A stretch of DNA of 12,819 nucleotides from a virus. Its lineage: Duplodnaviria; Heunggongvirae; Uroviricota; Caudoviricetes. This document shows positions 118-11,521 of this stretch, piece after piece. The notes below the pieces were generated by a model that saw only the letters and a program-made list of their open reading frames with translations, was not told the origin of the DNA and made no database searches. Both the position numbers and the translations under genes were made by a program. The stretch's first letter is position 1. Every line of letters begins with the position of its first letter. The DNA is taken from IMG/VR virus record IMGVR_UViG_2778260995_000007, positions 1 through 12,819 of that record; one strand, 5' to 3'.

Positions 118-249
118 TTGCTGGTTTTTACACTTAATCTTTTGATAATAAAGAATAAGTTTATCTGGTGCTTTCACTGAATTTTCCTCGTTATCTGTGT
201 GTTGCAATCATCTCTGTATTGCAGCTTGTATTGCTTTTTGGGGCTAAAA

Positions 250-1485
250 ATGGCTGGCGAGAACAAACTGAGCGACAAAGCGCTTAAAGGATATCTGGGG
301 AAACCCAGAGAAAAGCAGATCACCATTGCTGATGGAAAGGGGCTTTCTATTCGTGTGAGTACTAAAGGGGCTGTGAGCTTTGTTTTCTTCTACAGGTTAG
401 CAGGTGGCCGGGCTGCTCCGGTCTGGCTAACGTTGGGTAAATATCCTGATATGTCACTCAAACAGGCAAGGGAAAAGCGCGACGAGTGCCGTGGTTGGTT
501 GGCTGACAAACGTGATCCGCGTATCCAGATAAAGATTCAGGCTGAAGAACGCTTAAAGCCGGTCACAGTGGAGGATGCACTAAATTACTGGTATGAAAAT
601 TACTGTAAGGTGCGTCGTAAAACTCATGCTGTAACGCTTGGCAGATTTCGAAAGCATATCTTTCCCTATATCGGTCATTTGCCCGTAAATGACACTCACC
701 TATATGAATGGCTGGACTGTTTTGACCGAATTAAACGTAATGCACCAGTTATGGCGGCGTATGTTTTTTCTGACACTAAATTAGCTCTTCGTTTTTGTCG
801 GGTACGCCAGTACGCGACGTGTGATGCTTTAAAGGATTTGCGCATGAGTGATGTGGGGCAGATTGCAGGTAAGCGGGATCGGGTTCTGGATGAAGCCGAA
901 CTCGGCCAGCTCTGGAAGGCAATTTTTGTCGAGCCTGATTTAAAACTAATGTCTGAATACACGCGAAAAATGTTTGTGCTTTGTACACTATTTGGATGTC
1001 GAATGAGTGAAGCCCGATTATCAGAATGGAGCGAATGGGATCTCGAAAGTTGGGTTTGGACTGTACCAAAAGATCACTCAAAAACTGGTGTTGAAATCGT
1101 CAGACCAGTACCTGAAATTCTACGACAGTGGGTAACGGATGTTCACGAAGAGACAAAACATACTGGTTATGTGCTGGGAAGTCTGCGAATTAGAGAAAGC
1201 GTAAGCAAGATTGGGGGGAAAATCGGTAAACGTTTGGGCCATGAAAAACAATGGTCACTACACGACCTTAGAAGAACGCTATCTACTCATCTAAGTGATC
1301 TCGGTGTTGAATTTTATGTAGTAGAACAACTGTTAGGCCATGCGCTACCTGGCGTGGCAGGTGTTTACAACCGGAGTAAGTTTATGGCTAAAAAACTGGA
1401 TGCTCTGGAACTCTGGACTACATATCTCAATAGCATCGCAGGTGCTGATTCAAAAGTGACAATCCTCAAACAAAAGGCTGGTTAA
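250..1485 (+). CDS. int: Tyrosine site-specific integrase, P4-type
   Basis: ORF 199-1485; start placed at ATG 250 (MAGENKLSDKALKGYL...). N-terminal region and C-terminal ...HDLRRT...LLGHA... motifs are typical of P4-family integrases; sits next to the attL repeat. Confidence 0.88.
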   Translation: MAGENKLSDKALKGYLGKPREKQITIADGKGLSIRVSTKGAVSFVFFYRLAGGRAAPVWLTLGKYPDMSLKQAREKRDECRGWLADKRDPRIQIKIQAEERLKPVTVEDALNYWYENYCKVRRKTHAVTLGRFRKHIFPYIGHLPVNDTHLYEWLDCFDRIKRNAPVMAAYVFSDTKLALRFCRVRQYATCDALKDLRMSDVGQIAGKRDRVLDEAELGQLWKAIFVEPDLKLMSEYTRKMFVLCTLFGCRMSEARLSEWSEWDLESWVWTVPKDHSKTGVEIVRPVPEILRQWVTDVHEETKHTGYVLGSLRIRESVSKIGGKIGKRLGHEKQWSLHDLRRTLSTHLSDLGVEFYVVEQLLGHALPGVAGVYNRSKFMAKKLDALELWTTYLNSIAGADSKVTILKQKAG

Positions 1486-1486
1486 C

Positions 1487-1714
1487 ATGAAAAAAATGGC
1501 AATTGTTGATAAAAAGGGTCTGGAGTACATTCCTAACATTGATCGTATGATCCGTGAGAAAGAATGTCGGGAGCTAACCACTCTTGCGAACAGCACACGC
1601 TGGAAGCTGGAGAAGGAAGGAAAATTTCCTAAGCGGATCAAGATTGGCGCTACTGCGGTAGCTTACCGTCTCTCCGAAGTTCAGGCATGGATTAGGGGGG
1701 AATGGCGGACATAA
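1487..1714 (+). CDS. alpA: AlpA-family HTH regulator / excisionase-like protein
   Basis: 75 aa; ...LTTLANSTRWKLEKEGKFPKRIKIGATAVAYRLSEVQAWI is a typical AlpA (Phage_AlpA) HTH; ATG lies 1 nt after the int stop, suggesting translational coupling. Confidence 0.8.
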   Translation: MKKMAIVDKKGLEYIPNIDRMIREKECRELTTLANSTRWKLEKEGKFPKRIKIGATAVAYRLSEVQAWIRGEWRT

Positions 1715-3885: not shown

Positions 3886-5633
3886 AACGTGCTCCGAACT
3901 TAAAATACCAACCGCGCGACAAAATGACAGAAGTCATCATTTTTGCTGGCAGTGATGCCTGGAGCCATGCAAAAGAATGGAATGAATGGGCGGGTAAGCA
4001 TATTGCCGCCGACGATGTGCCGCCTGTCGTGCTGGCTGATGAGCAACTGAAAAATATCACCGATTACCGGATCATTGATGAAGATCGTCAGTGTGTGCGT
4101 GTTTACCGCGCAGGACATATCACAGAGCACAGCATGACGCAGATTGTTACGTTACTGGCTGTGGCTGGAGTGAAGACCGTACACGAATACGCGGGGATTA
4201 CTGACACCAGCCCAGTGGATTTATCCGAGCAGTTGCCGCGACTCAAAGAGGAATGCGAGCGTGGGGAAAGTCTGGTGCTTAATCTTCCGACGAAGCAAAA
4301 GGCGCAACTTTCACAGATGGCAGACAGTGAACGTGCACAACTACTTGCCGATCGCTTTGATGGTGTGTGTGTTCATGCAGAAAGTGAAATCGTCCACGTA
4401 TGGCGCGGCGGGGTATGGTGTCCGGTCAGCACAATGGAGCTGAGCCGCGAAATGGTGGCGATCTATTCAGAGCACAGGGCCACGTTCAGCAAACGTGTAA
4501 TCAATAACGCCGTGGAAGCGTTAAAAGTTATTGCCGACCCCATGGGGGAGCCGTCCGGTGATTTGCTACCGTTCACTAATGGTGTGCTTAACCTGAAAAC
4601 GGGGGAATTTTCTCCGCACTCGCCGGAGCACTGGAGCACCACGCACAATGGCATTGAGTACACGCCACCAGTAGCAGGGGAAAACATCCGCGATAATGCG
4701 CCAAATTTCCATAAATGGCTTGAACATGCTGCAAGAAAAGACCCGCGCAAGATGATGCGTATATGTGCCGCGTTATACATGATTATGGCGAACCGCTACG
4801 ACTGGCAGATGTTCATTGAGGCCACCGGAGACGGGGGAAGCGGTAAGAGTACATTTACCCATATTGCCACCCTGCTTGCTGGCAAACAGAACACCGTAAG
4901 CGCGGAGATGACATCACTCGATGATGCAGGAGGGCGCGCGCAGGTTGTCGGGAGTCGTCTTATCGTCCTTGCCGATCAGCCGAAATATACGGGGGAAGGC
5001 ACGGGCATCAAGAAAATCACGGGAGGCGATCCCGTTGAAATTAACCCGAAATATGAGAAGCGATTCACGACGATAATAAGGGCGGTGGTACTGGCAACCA
5101 ATAACGACCCGATGATCTTTACCGAACGAGCCGGAGGTGTGTCACGCCGTCGGGTGATTTTCCGGTTCGACAACATTGTAAGGGAGGACGAAAAAGACAA
5201 GGAATTACCGGAAAAGATAGCGGCAGAAATCCCCGTAATTATCCGCCGCTTGCTGGCTAATTTTGCTGACCCTGAAAAGGCACGGGCTTTATTACTGGAA
5301 CAGCGTGACGGTGATGAAGCTCTGGCAATAAAGCAGCAAACGGATCCGGTTGTTGAGCTTTGCGCGGCGCTGGAGTTTCTGGAGGAAGCTCGTGGGCTAA
5401 TGATGGGCGGTGGTGGTGACACCGTGAAGTACACGACCAGAAACAGCCTTTACCGTGTCTATATGGCCTTCATGGCATACACAGGAAAGGGGAAATGTTT
5501 GAGCGTGAATGAGTTCGGAAAGGCTATGAGGTCAGCGGCGAAAGTTTACGGATATGAATATATTACGCGAAAAGTTAAGGGAGTCACGCAGACCAACGCA
5601 ACGACTACTGATGATTGCGATGCGTTTTTATAA
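3882..5633 (+). CDS. Replication initiator: primase-associated SF3 helicase-type protein (P4 alpha C-terminal / D5-like family; the pri-rep of PICI-type satellites)
   Basis: 583 aa; Walker A GDGGSGKST and a downstream hydrophobic strand ending in D (LIVLAD) typical of P4-family primase-helicase C-terminal domains; GGAGG RBS; followed by an iteron array. Confidence 0.85.
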   Translation: MKRAPNLKYQPRDKMTEVIIFAGSDAWSHAKEWNEWAGKHIAADDVPPVVLADEQLKNITDYRIIDEDRQCVRVYRAGHITEHSMTQIVTLLAVAGVKTVHEYAGITDTSPVDLSEQLPRLKEECERGESLVLNLPTKQKAQLSQMADSERAQLLADRFDGVCVHAESEIVHVWRGGVWCPVSTMELSREMVAIYSEHRATFSKRVINNAVEALKVIADPMGEPSGDLLPFTNGVLNLKTGEFSPHSPEHWSTTHNGIEYTPPVAGENIRDNAPNFHKWLEHAARKDPRKMMRICAALYMIMANRYDWQMFIEATGDGGSGKSTFTHIATLLAGKQNTVSAEMTSLDDAGGRAQVVGSRLIVLADQPKYTGEGTGIKKITGGDPVEINPKYEKRFTTIIRAVVLATNNDPMIFTERAGGVSRRRVIFRFDNIVREDEKDKELPEKIAAEIPVIIRRLLANFADPEKARALLLEQRDGDEALAIKQQTDPVVELCAALEFLEEARGLMMGGGGDTVKYTTRNSLYRVYMAFMAYTGKGKCLSVNEFGKAMRSAAKVYGYEYITRKVKGVTQTNATTTDDCDAFL

Positions 5634-5646
5634 AAAATGGCAATGG

Positions 5647-5875
5647 TTATCTACCTTGTCTACCTGACTGAAAGAAAATACTTTTATTTCAATGTATTAA
5701 TGCAGGTAGATAACTATTTTTCACTGTCTACCTGTTATCTACCTTATCTACCCATTTTTGTAGACAGGTAAGGAGACGGGTAGAGATGAGGTAGACAGCT
5801 ATTTGGGGCTGTCTACCTCCCTGAAACCCGCGCCATTACTGGCCTGATAACTAATCAGGTAGACAAGGTAGACAA
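5647..5875. repeat. Iteron array, putative replication origin: about 12 copies of GGTAGA(C/T)A in both orientations around an AT-rich stretch (5667-5700)
   Basis: Seen directly: TTATCTACC/TTGTCTACC tandem at 5647-5664; GGTAGATAA at 5705-5713; three copies at 5725-5753; GGTAGACAA x2 at 5858-5875, and others. Confidence 0.7.
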
Positions 5876-5922
5876 GGTGGTGGTGCACAAAAAACTTTTT
5901 AAACGAGGGGGTAAAAATAAAA

Positions 5923-6670: not shown

Positions 6671-6844
6671 ATGCTACATAAATCCCGACCAAAGGGAGTG
6701 AAGATATTAACACTAATTATCCGCGCTGAAGTTGTTATCCCAAAACTTTATACAACATTGCACTCGGTTGCATGTATTCGCATGACAAATATCGGTGATA
6801 GCATATATCCACAATTATTTTTAATGAATGCAAAGAGGATGCGT

Positions 6845-7885
6845 ATGGTCGATTTATATTCGCCTACCCAGCTTGTACAGGTGGTTAATGCTGTAGATGT
6901 ACAAAAACAACTAAATGCGTTGTTTACCAGTTTGTTTTTTACTCGCTCTGTAATGTTTGAATCGCGCGATATTATTCTTGATACAATCGACGATCCAAAT
7001 ATCCCAATTGCAGCGTTTTGTTCTCCTATGGTGGGTAGTAAAGTTTCACGTGACGAAGGGTACGAATCAAAAACAATTCGTCCAGGCTATATGAAGCCGA
7101 AAAGCAGCATTGATCCAAATAAGTTAGCTGTGCGCCCTGCTGGTGTATCACCTGAGCAATACAATGCTTTTGGAGCGCGTAATATTAAAGTTAAACAGGC
7201 GATTGTAAATCAGGCTAAAGCTATTCGTGCACGTATTGAATGGCTTGCCGTTCAGGCAATCACAACGGGGAAAAATATCATTGAGGGCGATGGTATTGAA
7301 CGTTATGAACTGGACTGGAATATAAAACCACAAAATATTATCACGCAGTCTGGCGGTGCTGAGTGGTCAGGTAAGGATAAAGAAACTTTTGATCCAAATG
7401 ATGATATTGAGAGCTACGCAGAATTTAGTGAGGGCGTCACTAATATCATCATTATGGGCGGTAATGTATGGAAGAAATACCGTTCATTCAGAGCGATAAA
7501 AGAGGCTCTGGATACCCGCCGTGGTTCTAATTCCGAACTGGAAACGGCCCTTAAAGACCTTGGTGATTCGGTGAGTTTTAAAGGGTATATGGGCGATGTT
7601 GCGATTGTTGTTTACAGCGGACGTTATACCGACGAGGACGGAACTGAAAAACATTTCCTTGATCCTGATTTGATGGTGCTTGGCAATACGGCTCTTCAGG
7701 GGATTGTCGCCTATGGCGGTATTCAGGATCCGGAGCTAACCCGAATGGGGCTGACTAAAGCCGAACTTGCACCGAAAAACTATATTGTGCCTGGTGATCC
7801 GGCTATTGAGTACGTACAAACGCACTCTGCACCACAGCCAATACCGGCCCGCATCAATCGTTTTGTTACCGTTCGCATTGGCTAA
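6845..7885 (+). CDS. Major capsid protein, diverged homologue of lambda gpE, encoded by the element
   Basis: Start moved to ATG 6845 (AAGAGG RBS), giving 346 aa, close to lambda E in size. Shares blocks with lambda E as I recall it: PGYMKPK, ITQSGGAEW, LDTRRGSNSELETA, GDVAIVVYSG, VLGNT, GDPA (roughly 40-50% identity by eye). Confidence 0.8.
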   Translation: MVDLYSPTQLVQVVNAVDVQKQLNALFTSLFFTRSVMFESRDIILDTIDDPNIPIAAFCSPMVGSKVSRDEGYESKTIRPGYMKPKSSIDPNKLAVRPAGVSPEQYNAFGARNIKVKQAIVNQAKAIRARIEWLAVQAITTGKNIIEGDGIERYELDWNIKPQNIITQSGGAEWSGKDKETFDPNDDIESYAEFSEGVTNIIIMGGNVWKKYRSFRAIKEALDTRRGSNSELETALKDLGDSVSFKGYMGDVAIVVYSGRYTDEDGTEKHFLDPDLMVLGNTALQGIVAYGGIQDPELTRMGLTKAELAPKNYIVPGDPAIEYVQTHSAPQPIPARINRFVTVRIG

Positions 7886-7894
7886 GGGGGAGCA

Positions 7895-8236
7895 ATGGCT
7901 ACTCATTACACTGAACTCATGTCTGGCACTGAAGCACTGGTTACTACGCTGGGGATATTTTCAGCCAATAAAGGGGTAATACCTGCGTTTACGCCACTGA
8001 TGCAGGAAGATGCAACTGGTGCGCTAGTGGTATGGGATGGAACGAGCGCAGGCAAAGCGGTTTATGTTTCCGCTGTACAAATCGACACAGCGAAAAAAAC
8101 ACAGGCACAGGTTTATAAGACAGGTGTTTTAAATGTTGATGCTCTGAACTGGCCTGAGTCTGTAAGAGAACTGTCGGCAAAGGTTGCCGCGTTTGTTGGC
8201 TCAGGTATTTCTGTTCAGCCGCTGGCTCGTGTGTAA
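7895..8236 (+). CDS. Head decoration protein, homologue of lambda gpD
   Basis: 113 aa; ...PAFTPLMQEDATGALVVWDGTSAGKAV...YKTGVLNVDALNWPE...AAFVGSGISV parallels lambda D (...PAMTPLM...LVAWDGTTDGAAV...YKSGTFRYEDVLWPE...TAFAGTAISIV); AAGGGGGA RBS. Confidence 0.8.
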   Translation: MATHYTELMSGTEALVTTLGIFSANKGVIPAFTPLMQEDATGALVVWDGTSAGKAVYVSAVQIDTAKKTQAQVYKTGVLNVDALNWPESVRELSAKVAAFVGSGISVQPLARV

Positions 8237-8247
8237 AGGGGGATACA

Positions 8248-8631
8248 ATGCAGAATCATTACAATGACCTTAAGCCAATTGCCGAAATGATGTACCCGAA
8301 TCCAGCTGTAGAGGAATTAAAAGCTATCGCTGACAAAATGTGTTTAAGCGAGCGCCTTGTTGATATGAATCAGGTGATGGAAATTACAACCCTGAGTCGG
8401 CGTACACTGCTAAACCTTGAGGCTAGTGGAGAGTTCCCGGAGCGTGTGCAGGTTACGGAAGGGCGTAAGGCCTGGTATTTAAGTGAAGTGATCGACTGGA
8501 TAAATAATATTCCTCGCGCTTCTGAATATTGCCGCGTACCTGTCCCAAAAAAGCCAGATGCGGCGCTATGCCTCAAGATTGAGCGTGTACGCCGCAATGC
8601 ACGGGATGGTCGCTATAAGCTGATTGGTTGA
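8248..8631 (+). CDS. AlpA/MerR-like HTH DNA-binding protein, larger than a typical AlpA, function unknown
   Basis: 127 aa; central ...MEITTLSRRTLLNLEASGEFPERVQVTEGRKAWYLSEVIDWI is an AlpA-type HTH; AAAGGGGGA RBS; follows the capsid genes. Confidence 0.65.
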   Translation: MQNHYNDLKPIAEMMYPNPAVEELKAIADKMCLSERLVDMNQVMEITTLSRRTLLNLEASGEFPERVQVTEGRKAWYLSEVIDWINNIPRASEYCRVPVPKKPDAALCLKIERVRRNARDGRYKLIG

Positions 8632-9287
8632 TGAAATTAGGGCCCGCTCTGGCTGGCGGGTCCTTTCCGGCGATCCAGAACGTTACGGGGCGTCAGGCGC
8701 GCAGTTTTTTGCTATTTATGAAAATTTTCCGGTTTAAAGCGTTTCCGTTCTTCTTCGCCGTAACTTAATGTTTTTATTAGAAACACCCACTAAAAAGAAA
8801 GGAAACAACAGATGCTGAAAACGTGTTTTTTGGACAGTGTCGTTTCCTTTCTCTGGTTTTGTTGCCGTCTGTCGCGGTCTGTCACCAGAAAAAACTCTCA
8901 CCCCTGCGTTGAATCAGGCTCTACACTAAAGTAGACAATAACGCGCCGCTGGCTTCGCTTCATGGTCGTGGCCTACTTCTGCACTATCGCAACAGCCTTA
9001 TGCGCCCTGCTGGTGAGCTATTGAGTAAGCAGAATGCGGATTACAAGGCATCCTATGCGTTTTGTGGCGTACCGAACACAACCGCTCAGGTGAATCCCGT
9101 TTTGTTAGTTTATGGAAAGAGCCGTATCGGGGGCGCAATCATTTCTGCGTGGATCTATGTCGAAGACAAAATGTGGTATGCGCATCTGGCCGGAGGGTGA
9201 GCAATTTATCAGGGAAGTATCATCTCTACAGGTTTAAGACAACCAGAAGAAGTTATCGAGCAAGTTGGGTATGAAGATTTTCCTATA

Positions 9288-9676: not shown

Positions 9677-10549
9677 TTACTTTATAATTCCGTCTTTGAA
9701 AACCATTTTCTTAGCGCCAGAGGTATAGTTTTGAACAATTCCCAATAACTCTTTTGAATAGTCAATTGTAGAAATTGTCTCTGCCGGTTTGTTATATGTG
9801 TAATTAAGTGAGTAACCTCTCAGCTTTAATCTTAAATCACCATTTTCTAACTCTAAATAAGCGTCGGTTAGCTCTTCTTTGTAAGTGCCTGCACCATATT
9901 GGATGTTAGGTACTCTCGCGGATAAGGAGTTTTCTAAGTCGCAGAGAGAATACTTGTCGTGGGTAGTATTATCAACGATGAATATTTGGTTGTTAAGTAG
10001 TCGACTGAACCTTGAATTTAAATCATCTATGTTTAAATTTTTTTGCGACTCAAGCCAGCTTGCATCTATCATTGGTGAGAATGCAGTTATTCTGGGGGGA
10101 GTTATCGCGACGATATTCAATTGAATAGTTTTGATAAGTGGTGTTCCATCTGGCGCGCGCCAGTCTTCGTTATCAGCTTCACGAACTATTAGAAGGTCAA
10201 TTTTATATTGTTCGGCTTTTTTTTGAGCCCCACTTTGATACCCTGTTTTGGTTGCATAAATTAGTCTTAGGCCGGGAATATCTGCTGTTTTTCCGATGAA
10301 TGCGTCAATTTTCTCGATACTTACACTTGAAGCGTAGTCTTTGCATTCGATTACGGTCTTATATTCATAACCTCCTAAGTTAAATTCCCAATACACATCG
10401 AATTGCCTAGTTATGCCGTTTTTATCTACGATTTTTTTGTTTACTTCAACGGTGATGTTTTTCAAGTGAGAAATTTTCTCAGCTTGTATCAAGCTTTGAT
10501 GAATCGCCCCAACAAATTCCTCATAATCTCTGCCAGTGTTTTTAGTCAT
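9677..10549 (-). CDS. Mrr-type restriction-endonuclease-like (PD-(D/E)xK) protein with an uncharacterised C-terminal domain; candidate defence nuclease
   Basis: Start placed at ATG 10549 (GAGG RBS 8 nt upstream; the track's 10567 start is TTG), 290 aa. N-terminal half shows a PD-(D/E)xK pattern (...QFDVYWEF...YKTVIECKDY...SIEKIDAFIGK...LIYATKTGYQSGA...). Visibly AT-rich. Confidence 0.75.
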   Translation of the reverse strand: MTKNTGRDYEEFVGAIHQSLIQAEKISHLKNITVEVNKKIVDKNGITRQFDVYWEFNLGGYEYKTVIECKDYASSVSIEKIDAFIGKTADIPGLRLIYATKTGYQSGAQKKAEQYKIDLLIVREADNEDWRAPDGTPLIKTIQLNIVAITPPRITAFSPMIDASWLESQKNLNIDDLNSRFSRLLNNQIFIVDNTTHDKYSLCDLENSLSARVPNIQYGAGTYKEELTDAYLELENGDLRLKLRGYSLNYTYNKPAETISTIDYSKELLGIVQNYTSGAKKMVFKDGIIK

Positions 10550-10730
10550 TGTGCAGCCTCGTTCCAATCATCAGAGTAACGGTTAAATATTTATACACCT
10601 TGAATCTATGAACAGATTTATGTCACTTCACGCTGTATTGCACGCTGTATTGCATTAAGGAGGAATAATGTCGATTTGATGATGTTTTATCAAGTAAATT
10701 CATTCACATCCTTTCATATTTGACTCATGT

Positions 10731-10740
10731 AACCCAAGCA
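10731..10740. repeat. Right copy of 10-bp direct repeat AACCCAAGCA (putative attR core)
   Basis: Identical to 77-86; the E reading frame resumes directly here (CCC AAG CAT GAG GTG = P K H E V). Confidence 0.6.
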
Positions 10741-11521
10741 TGAGGTGAATCCGCAGATGACCCTGCGTCGCCTGCCGGATGAAGATCCGCAGAATCTGGC
10801 GGACCCAGCTTACCGCCGCCGTCGCATCATCATGCAGAACATGCGTGACGAAGAGCTGGCCATTGCTCAGGTCGAAGAGATGCAGGCAGTTTCTGCCGTG
10901 CTTAAGGGCAAATACACCATGACCGGTGAAGCCTTCGATCCGGTTGAGGTGGATATGGGCCGCAGTGCGGCGAATAACATCACGCAGTCCGGCGGCACGG
11001 AGTGGAGCAAGCGTGACAAGTCCACGTATGACCCGACCGACGATATCGAAGCCTACGCGCTGAACGCCAGCGGTGTGGTGAATATCATCGTGTTTGATCC
11101 GAAAGGCTGGGCGCTGTTCCGTTCCTTCAAAGCCGTCAAGGAGAAGCTGGATACCCGTCGTGGCTCTAATTCCGAGCTGGAGACAGCGGTGAAAGACCTG
11201 GGTAAAGCGGTGTCCTATAAGGGGATGTATGGCGATGTTGCCATCGTCGTGTATTCCGGACAGTACGTGGAAAACGGTGTCAAAAAGAACTTCCTGCCGG
11301 ACAACACGATGGTGCTGGGGAACACTCAGGCACGCGGTCTGCGTACCTATGGCTGTATTCAGGATTCGGACGCACAGCGCGAAGGCATTAACGCATCTGC
11401 CCGTTACCCGAAAAACTGGGTGACCACCGGCGATCCGGCGCGTGAGTTCACCATGATTCAGTCAGCACCGCTGATGCTGCTGGCTGACCCTGATGAGTTC
11501 GTGTCCGTACAACTGGCGTAA
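10733..11521 (+). pseudogene. E: 3' fragment of lambda-type major capsid protein gene E (from ...KPKHEVNPQMTLRRL to the C-terminus)
   Basis: Translation matches my recollection of the lambda gpE C-terminal ~260 aa almost residue for residue; an in-frame TAA at 10730-10732 closes the frame upstream. Confidence 0.85.

Follow-up and report, generated by a model that had tools for sequence, protein, structure and literature searches.

A second AlpA-family protein at the end of a satellite capsid operon is a candidate regulator of PICI late genes

Introduction

What is a second AlpA-family protein doing at the end of a satellite capsid operon, far from the integrase gene? The question is raised by a 127-aa protein encoded in the window, the 12,819-nucleotide stretch of viral DNA that was analysed here. 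Capsid and decoration genes are frequent in Gram-negative PICIs. In EcCICFT073 these genes are dispensable for both transfer and interference (PMC6092414). An earlier note on this DNA had proposed that the protein is a late-gene regulator or a packaging-specificity factor rather than an excisionase. A description of the protein was not found in the literature. We examined the island that encodes it, the protein and its relatives, the capsid promoter and the cos region.

The island and its host prophage

The window contains an island seated inside a lambda-like E gene. The island splits E into a 5' fragment (1-86) and a 3' fragment (10731-11521), which is followed by FI- and FII-like genes. Based on the att block, the gene content, the composite prophage of a close relative and the match to the published description, it is one of the helper-embedded PICIs (HE-PICIs), of the '11capE' type described by Tommasini, Mageeney and Williams (PMC10111431). 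The relative is E. coli T-HYM1 (L007), in which an island copy 98% identical to ours is seen within a whole 42-kb composite prophage. That host prophage is Qin-like and lambdoid. Before the island it has nohA/Nu1, A, W, B, C, D and the 5' fragment of E; beyond the island come the remaining E sequence, then FI, FII and tail genes. The island genes run in the order int, 75-aa AlpA, TIR-domain gene, Icd-like, DUF4222, D5_N primase, SSB, lambda-E-type capsid gene (capE), gpD-type gene and 127-aa gene. Coordinates are given in Table 1.

The doubled TGTATTGC motif of HE-PICIs is present in the island. It occurs as TGTATTGCA(N3)TGTATTGCA near both ends (~202-240 and 10628-10655), and the left-end copy is immediately 5' of the int start codon. 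The doubled motif was reported for the att arms of HE-PICIs and as specific to them (PMC10111431).

Several other features of the island were recorded. The product of the TIR gene (1751-2626), 291 aa long, contains a TIR domain of the CAP12/Pycsar type and matched PDC-S35, a candidate defence family of PADLOC (E 5e-67). The gene occupies a variable slot 3' of alpA that holds other genes in relatives, such as DUF2971 in L007. A second accessory/defence slot near attR contains an Mrr_cat-type restriction-endonuclease-like gene (296 aa, 9677-10567, minus strand), for which PADLOC gave no match; an Abi_C gene is found there in relatives L015-L017. At least 10 iterons (GGTAGACA/TGTCTACC), dense and in both orientations, lie directly 3' of the primase gene (5640-5880) and are likely the satellite replication origin. 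What is left of a lambda gpI-like tail-assembly gene (9003-9170) is 71% identical to the C-terminus of an intact 194-aa gene located 3' of cos in Pluralibacter and Kluyvera satellites, which points to a late zone that was formerly larger and has since decayed.

Table 1. Positions in the window of the island junctions, the int-proximal genes, the capsid cassette with its putative promoter, and the satellite cos region.
Feature	Position	Strand	Basis or remark
att identity block AACCCAAGCA, 10 bp	77-86 and 10731-10740		both island junctions
int	199-1485		
Canonical int-proximal AlpA, 75 aa, paralog of the 127-aa protein	1487-1714	+	PF05930, E 6e-15
Phased direct-repeat array, putative operator of the 127-aa protein	6749-6783	+	sequence, conservation, co-occurrence
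Box 1, TATACA	6749-6754	+	
Box 2, TTGCAC	6758-6763	+	
Box 3, TTGCAT	6768-6773	+	
Box 4, TCGCAT	6778-6783	+	
Extended -10-like TGaTAGCAT, putative capE-operon promoter	6796-6804	+	sequence
capE, satellite major capsid protein, lambda E family, 346 aa; first in cassette	6845-7885	+	PF03864, E 6.5e-42
gpD-like head decoration gene; second in cassette	7895-8236	+	PF02924, E 4.6e-15; PHROG 49
Ribosome-binding region of the 127-aa gene	8237-8247	+	sequence
127-aa AlpA-family winged-HTH gene	8248-8631	+	ATG to TGA
GC-rich hairpin (GGGCCCGC...GCGGGTCC) between the 127-aa stop and cosQ, overlapping the cosQ start	8640-8663	+	sequence
Satellite cos region	8658-8852	+	alignment with lambda and helper cos; repeats
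cosQ	8658-8670	+	
cosN-equivalent GGGCGTCAGGCG	8688-8699	+	
Lambda-type cosB, R3	8740-8751	+	
Lambda-type cosB, R2 (inverted)	8796-8810	+	
Lambda-type cosB, R1	8838-8852	+	

The 127-aa protein

The Pfam profile Phage_AlpA (PF05930) matched two proteins of the element, in agreement with the earlier note. In the larger one the match covers residues 36-85 (E 7.6e-9, 35.8 bits against a gathering cut-off of 21 bits), with profile positions 2-51 of 51 aligned. The two paralogs are 36% identical over 67 residues. Both extensions described in the note are real, since most of the 98 homolog clusters are exactly 127 aa in length. The protein is composed of a core (~36-86), an N-terminal extension (1-35) with helices at 5-15 and 19-33, and a C-terminal extension (~87-127) with a helix at 105-120; both extensions are conserved.

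The structure was modelled with AF2, which gave a pLDDT of 79.2 with a broader alignment and 58.7 with a shallow one. The protein has the winged-HTH fold of the excisionase/MerR superfamily. The top solved-structure match by sequence was 8C3T (E 2.2e-9, PDB sequence search). 8C3T was also first in the fold search with the model; the matches after it form a flat plateau made up of RDFs, Xis, BldC, MerR-type regulators, RppC and the DNA-binding domains of TerS. In the comparison that the note had called for, against AlpA, MerR and small terminase domains, the AlpA profile matched, the Nu1 profile (PF07471) did not, and the fold matches were mixed, with MerR-type and TerS domains among them. Fold similarity alone does not discriminate between functions for this protein. 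A Q-like antiterminator was considered because of the name. The 'AlpA' of Pseudomonas aeruginosa has a Q21-like fold of eight helices, in which the N-terminal part forms a ring and the C-terminal part an HTH (PMC9371919); this fold differs from our model, no Q21-like 'AlpA' chain was among the fold matches, and the two proteins share the name alone. An Rfam scan, and PADLOC run on the protein, returned nothing relevant.

A typical AlpA is a single domain of ~60-75 aa encoded beside the integrase. The 127-aa protein departs from this layout, as its gene follows gpD ~6.8 kb away from int. Canonical PICI AlpAs (62-75 aa, encoded after int) are 32-36% identical to it and lack its added conserved helices and its position at the capsid-operon end by cos.

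The homolog search listed the 98 protein clusters, which are spread across Enterobacteriaceae and reach down to 56% BLASTP identity. The genera represented are Escherichia, Enterobacter, Citrobacter, Klebsiella, Salmonella, Pluralibacter, Trabulsiella, Kosakonia, Kluyvera, Cedecea, Buttiauxella and Scandinavium. The gene was found in 373/5,426 complete E. coli genomes, where it is annotated only as 'helix-turn-helix transcriptional regulator'. No full-length homolog was found in 50,697 phage records. One phage-collection match, H24, proved to be a PICI that forms capsids, and its AlpA-like gene is just the usual one beside int. The family is satellite-specific and Enterobacteriaceae-wide, and it extends beyond HE-PICIs to ordinary chromosomal PICIs (L002, L179). 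Synonymous sites of the gene are saturated (pS 0.52-1.10). Nonsynonymous divergence is lowest in the core (pN 0.04-0.07) and higher in the C-extension (0.21-0.27) and the N-extension (0.33-0.37).

Inheritance of the capsid cassette

The start of capE was placed at 6845, as annotated in relatives, and not at 6671, the start of a mechanical 404-aa ORF. The ribosome-binding site of the 127-aa gene, AAGGGGGA, begins inside the gpD stop codon, and 5 nt separate its end from the ATG. The same AAGGGGGA precedes gpD, and capE has AAGAGGA, so the type of ribosome-binding site is shared with the capsid genes. The 127-aa gene starts 11 nt after the gpD stop and is followed by the hairpin and cosQ; it therefore ends the capsid operon, as had been suggested. 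A consensus scan gave no canonical terminator call for the hairpin.

The order capE, gpD, 127-aa gene, cos is kept in every locus examined. cosQ lies 27-54 bp 3' of the 127-aa stop in 84/88 loci (27 bp in the window). Across divergent islands the core of the 127-aa protein is 69-93% identical and capE 72-87% identical, while in the same islands the primase is ~40-45% identical and the integrase 24-32% identical or undetectable. Judged from these identities, capE, gpD and the 127-aa gene form one inherited module that does not travel with the integrase or primase. The first capE scan of viral contigs yielded near-identical loci only, and the contrast loci came by other routes.

The slot after gpD is filled differently in other islands. 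EcCICFT073-like islands have a 137-aa, Nu3 scaffold-like gene, Lelliottia has a full S49 peptidase/scaffold gene, and Salmonella L181 has another AlpA-domain protein of 145 aa from a different subfamily. The EcCICFT073 gene c1501 (orf137) was considered as the slot equivalent and rejected as unrelated to the 127-aa protein. The c1501 region (L006 32083-32496) is 37% identical to the C-terminal Nu3-like part of a prophage S49 peptidase gene; homologs of capsid, decoration and scaffold genes thus all seem to be present in the model PICI EcCICFT073. In L181, cos-like sites lie on either side of the capE-gpD-AlpA-like cassette (5580-5700 and ~8100-8230), with GGTTCCGGTTCC repeats after the first.

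The pattern of inheritance bears on excision. The 127-aa protein might be an RDF, that is, a second, late-expressed excisionase for the island's own integrase or for the helper prophage. A precedent is the second AlpA (AlpA_1) of EcCIMP1, the only published PICI noted to have two AlpA-family genes of different function, where AlpA_1 supports helper excision (PMC11773190). The two proteins are not orthologs, however. AlpA_1 is short and TorI/Xis-like, and its gene, at the far end of the EcCIMP1 island, is on the opposite strand, whereas the 127-aa protein is co-oriented with the capsid operon to which it belongs, has extensions and shows no link to excision. The GIsul2 excisionase (8C3T), RdfS and other AlpA/Xis-type RDFs match it over the ~55-residue core only and, unlike RDFs, it tracks neither integrase nor att site: its gene is inherited with capE-gpD and not with int, and its core is conserved between islands with divergent integrases and differing att sites. 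Every island already has its own int-proximal small HTH gene. The doubled att motif was reported as HE-PICI-specific, but the 127-aa gene is also present in the chromosomal PICIs L002 and L179. An excisionase role is quite unlikely. The claim of the earlier note that the protein is not an excisionase is backed indirectly by these sequence identities.

Phased repeats upstream of capE

In islands with the 127-aa gene the region 5' of capE contains 3-5 direct repeats with a period of 10-11 bp and the consensus TTGCAC (variants TATACA and TTGTAC). The window has four such boxes with a period of 9-10 bp. An extended -10 element, TGnTAnnAT, is kept in most loci, and the boxes and this element are the sole conserved blocks 5' of capE across divergent islands. 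A sigma-70 -35 hexamer is absent from the putative capE promoter, box 4 being in its place, and the consensus scan found no full sigma-70 promoter there. A search with a three-box pattern gave 8 matches in 239 kb of loci against 0.22 expected. 5/8 sit 78-103 bp 5' of a capE start, and the other three are elsewhere and chance-like.

The boxes are present in 89/90 loci with the 127-aa gene and in 1/72 without it, although these 162 loci represent about two large lineages and about a dozen divergent ones and are not independent cases. This result, with the location of the repeats at the capE promoter, favours the late-gene regulator over the packaging-specificity factor in the earlier either/or proposal. 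In the EcCICFT073-like lineage without the 127-aa gene, the capE promoter is near-consensus and contains palindromes, and a gene for a PerC-family regulator lies 5' of capE. No obvious TTGCAC array was seen in Salmonella L181, which has the different AlpA-domain protein in the slot.

Two other assignments of the boxes were ruled out. They are not sites for the int-proximal AlpA, since the int-proximal regulators of box-bearing islands are of three unrelated types, yet the boxes are unchanged. They are not replication iterons, which have a different motif, GGTAGACA, and lie beside the primase gene.

The box sequences were then compared with the variants of the 127-aa protein. Near-identical arrays are found in Pluralibacter L002 and Kosakonia L009, whose int-proximal regulators are of the HTH_17 and AlpA type, respectively; the 127-aa protein is the only DNA-binding protein common to both. 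Serratia L179, with R52Q and wing changes, has five exactly phased repeats of the form TTAGAC/TTGGGT/TTGTGC. Cedecea L012, with R52G, has TTGTAC boxes, and Buttiauxella L001 has TATACA-type boxes. In these sequence comparisons the boxes covary with the variant of the 127-aa protein, in its recognition helix or wing, and not with the type of int-proximal regulator.

The TTGCA core is found in other contexts. It is part of the doubled HE-PICI att motif tgTGTATTGCantgTGTATTGCa, but TGTATTGCA in the att motif has a 12-bp period. As a half-site it forms inverted repeats in capsid-operon promoters of islands without the 127-aa gene (L006, L180). Since TTGCA is not exclusive to the 127-aa protein, another protein or a host factor could read the boxes. 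Clusters of inverted ATTGCA-N5/7-TGCAAT were recorded at L180 655-695, 5673-5715 and 7784-7825 and at L006 30299-30358; they look like operators for another regulator.

If something else reads the boxes, the 127-aa protein could act outward, on helper-phage or host genes. Outward-acting satellite regulators are known (PMC10111431, PMC11773190); models are CapR of PLE, which acts in interference, and the EcCIMP1 repressor of LEE, which acts in host cross-talk. That the DNA-binding core is strongly conserved from genus to genus would be in keeping with a conserved target in the helper. However, the 42-kb L007 composite, from helper Q through the tail genes, has no phased box array outside PcapE. 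No helper or host target was found, and an outward role leaves the co-variation of boxes and protein unexplained. We regard such a role as quite improbable.

The cos region and packaging

The position of the gene just 5' of cos suggests the other half of the earlier proposal, a packaging factor acting at or near cos. Such a factor could be a TerS/Rpp-like mimic that binds the helper small terminase or an accessory cos-binding protein; its winged helix and extensions would contact the helper TerS, and satellite packaging would be favoured or helper packaging hindered. Rpp proteins have an N-terminal winged HTH, are encoded ~100 bp 3' of the PICI cos and bind TerS, and the cosB of Rpp-bearing PICIs differs from that of the helper (PMC6739421, PMC9026076).

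The 127-aa protein differs from RppA/B/C in sequence, in HTH position and in the side of cos on which it is encoded. RppA of CFT073 (c1503) gave no BLASTP alignment with it at E<=100, and no Rpp chain was found in the PDB sequence search. Nu1 gave a BLASTP match with E 0.49 over 48 aa, which is not significant. The HTH is internal and not N-terminal, and the gene lies 5' of cos, whereas rpp and terS lie 3' of it. The gene also coexists with a true Rpp (L004) or a Nu1-like terS (L001, L009, L011, L015).

The satellite cos region was aligned with that of lambda and the helper. Its helper-like cosQ and full lambda-type cosB (R3-I1-R2-R1) suggest that the helper TerS should recognise the island directly, and with a cosB of the helper/lambda type a change of specificity is not needed. 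No TTGCAC-type array was found in the cos region. The cosN site differs: a canonical lambda cosN was not found in the window at <=2 mismatches, the satellite site differing at 5/12 positions. Lambda and the island's own helper (L007 6797-6840) have GGGCGGCGACCT in place of GGGCGTCAGGCG. The GGGCGTCAGGCG variant is common to 47 related loci, and cosN takes still other forms in other satellites.

The module past cos was compared in 176 capE-bearing loci and falls into three kinds: a GGTGG-rich (GGTGGTGG) cosB together with a Nu1-like terS; Rpp with a CCACC-rich (CCACCACC) cosB, CCACCACC being the reverse complement of the GGTGGTGG motif; and a lambda R-type cosB with no terS, as at 8740-8852 of the window. 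Each kind occurs both with and without the 127-aa gene, and identical cos modules are present in the lineage that lacks it. These findings make a packaging factor unlikely. The post-cos modules (L001, L009, L011, L015 and L017; L004 and L006; the window) are interchangeable cassettes found in both capE lineages.

In Pluralibacter L004 the 127-aa gene is found alongside an RppA homolog that is 70% identical to RppA. A 131-aa ORF lies between the 127-aa gene and cos in Pluralibacter (L002 10389-10781, L003 9033-9428, L004 1848-2243). It is ~35% identical to RppA residues 49-126, has no match to the N-terminal winged-HTH region of RppA, and could be an Rpp paralog without a DNA-binding domain. 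In L004 it coexists with the full Rpp.

Discussion

The reading we favour is that the 127-aa protein is a dedicated DNA-binding regulator of the satellite capsid (late) operon. Going by the phased boxes, their co-occurrence with the gene and their co-variation with its product, we put the chance of this at about even. Several copies of the protein would bind head-to-tail on the 3-5 phased TTGCAC-like repeats, at ~-75 to -35 of the extended -10 promoter, much as Xis/AlpA-type and BldC-type winged-helix proteins do on repeated sites. BldC and small MerR-like proteins and OmpR/PhoB-type activators are analogues in site architecture only and share no family with it. The bound protein would control transcription of capE, gpD, its own gene and whatever lies past cos. 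From the promoter geometry we infer that activation is likelier than repression, since the -35 hexamer is missing and the box nearest the promoter is at the position of a class II activator. The N- and C-terminal helices may serve in oligomerisation or in RNA polymerase contacts.

Because the gene is inside its own operon, the proposed control would form an autoregulatory loop. A close model is the AlpA of EcCICFT073, which like the 127-aa protein is a PICI-encoded winged-HTH protein of PF05930. It is the first AlpA of EcCICFT073, a master activator, and was shown by experiment to be a positive autoregulator (PMC6092414). By analogy the same mode of action is proposed for the 127-aa protein, with the difference that its promoter would be late and that of the canonical AlpA early.

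Besides the wider occurrence of the TTGCA core and the case of Salmonella L181, two further points stand against this regulator. An activator encoded at the end of its operon requires a separate priming route. The early/replication operon upstream could supply it by read-through, or the helper could do so by its late transcription while the island is embedded. The tight placement just 5' of cos is not accounted for by a purely transcriptional role. A bifunctional adaptor, found in this satellite lineage alone, would cover both sites: it would turn on the capsid operon via the boxes and engage the helper packaging or assembly machinery at the adjacent cos. The lineage-variable N-terminal helices and the basic C-terminal helix would then contact the helper, either TerS or the co-expressed capsid proteins. 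Such an adaptor is a long shot. If true, satellite capsid production would be coupled to satellite DNA packaging, and satellites would have a form of late control that is new and differs from Rpp.

The gene is real and conserved, and its product is a satellite-specific member of the AlpA family with new extensions and, as its setting suggests, a new genomic role. A Pfam 'AlpA' match in a satellite should therefore carry no automatic integration/excision label, contrary to current satellite annotation schemes. In one large PICI lineage, which includes the commonest helper-embedded type, three late genes form a conserved cassette that has a candidate regulator and a candidate operator of its own. 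This pair offers a testable handle on the timing and purpose of satellite capsid expression.
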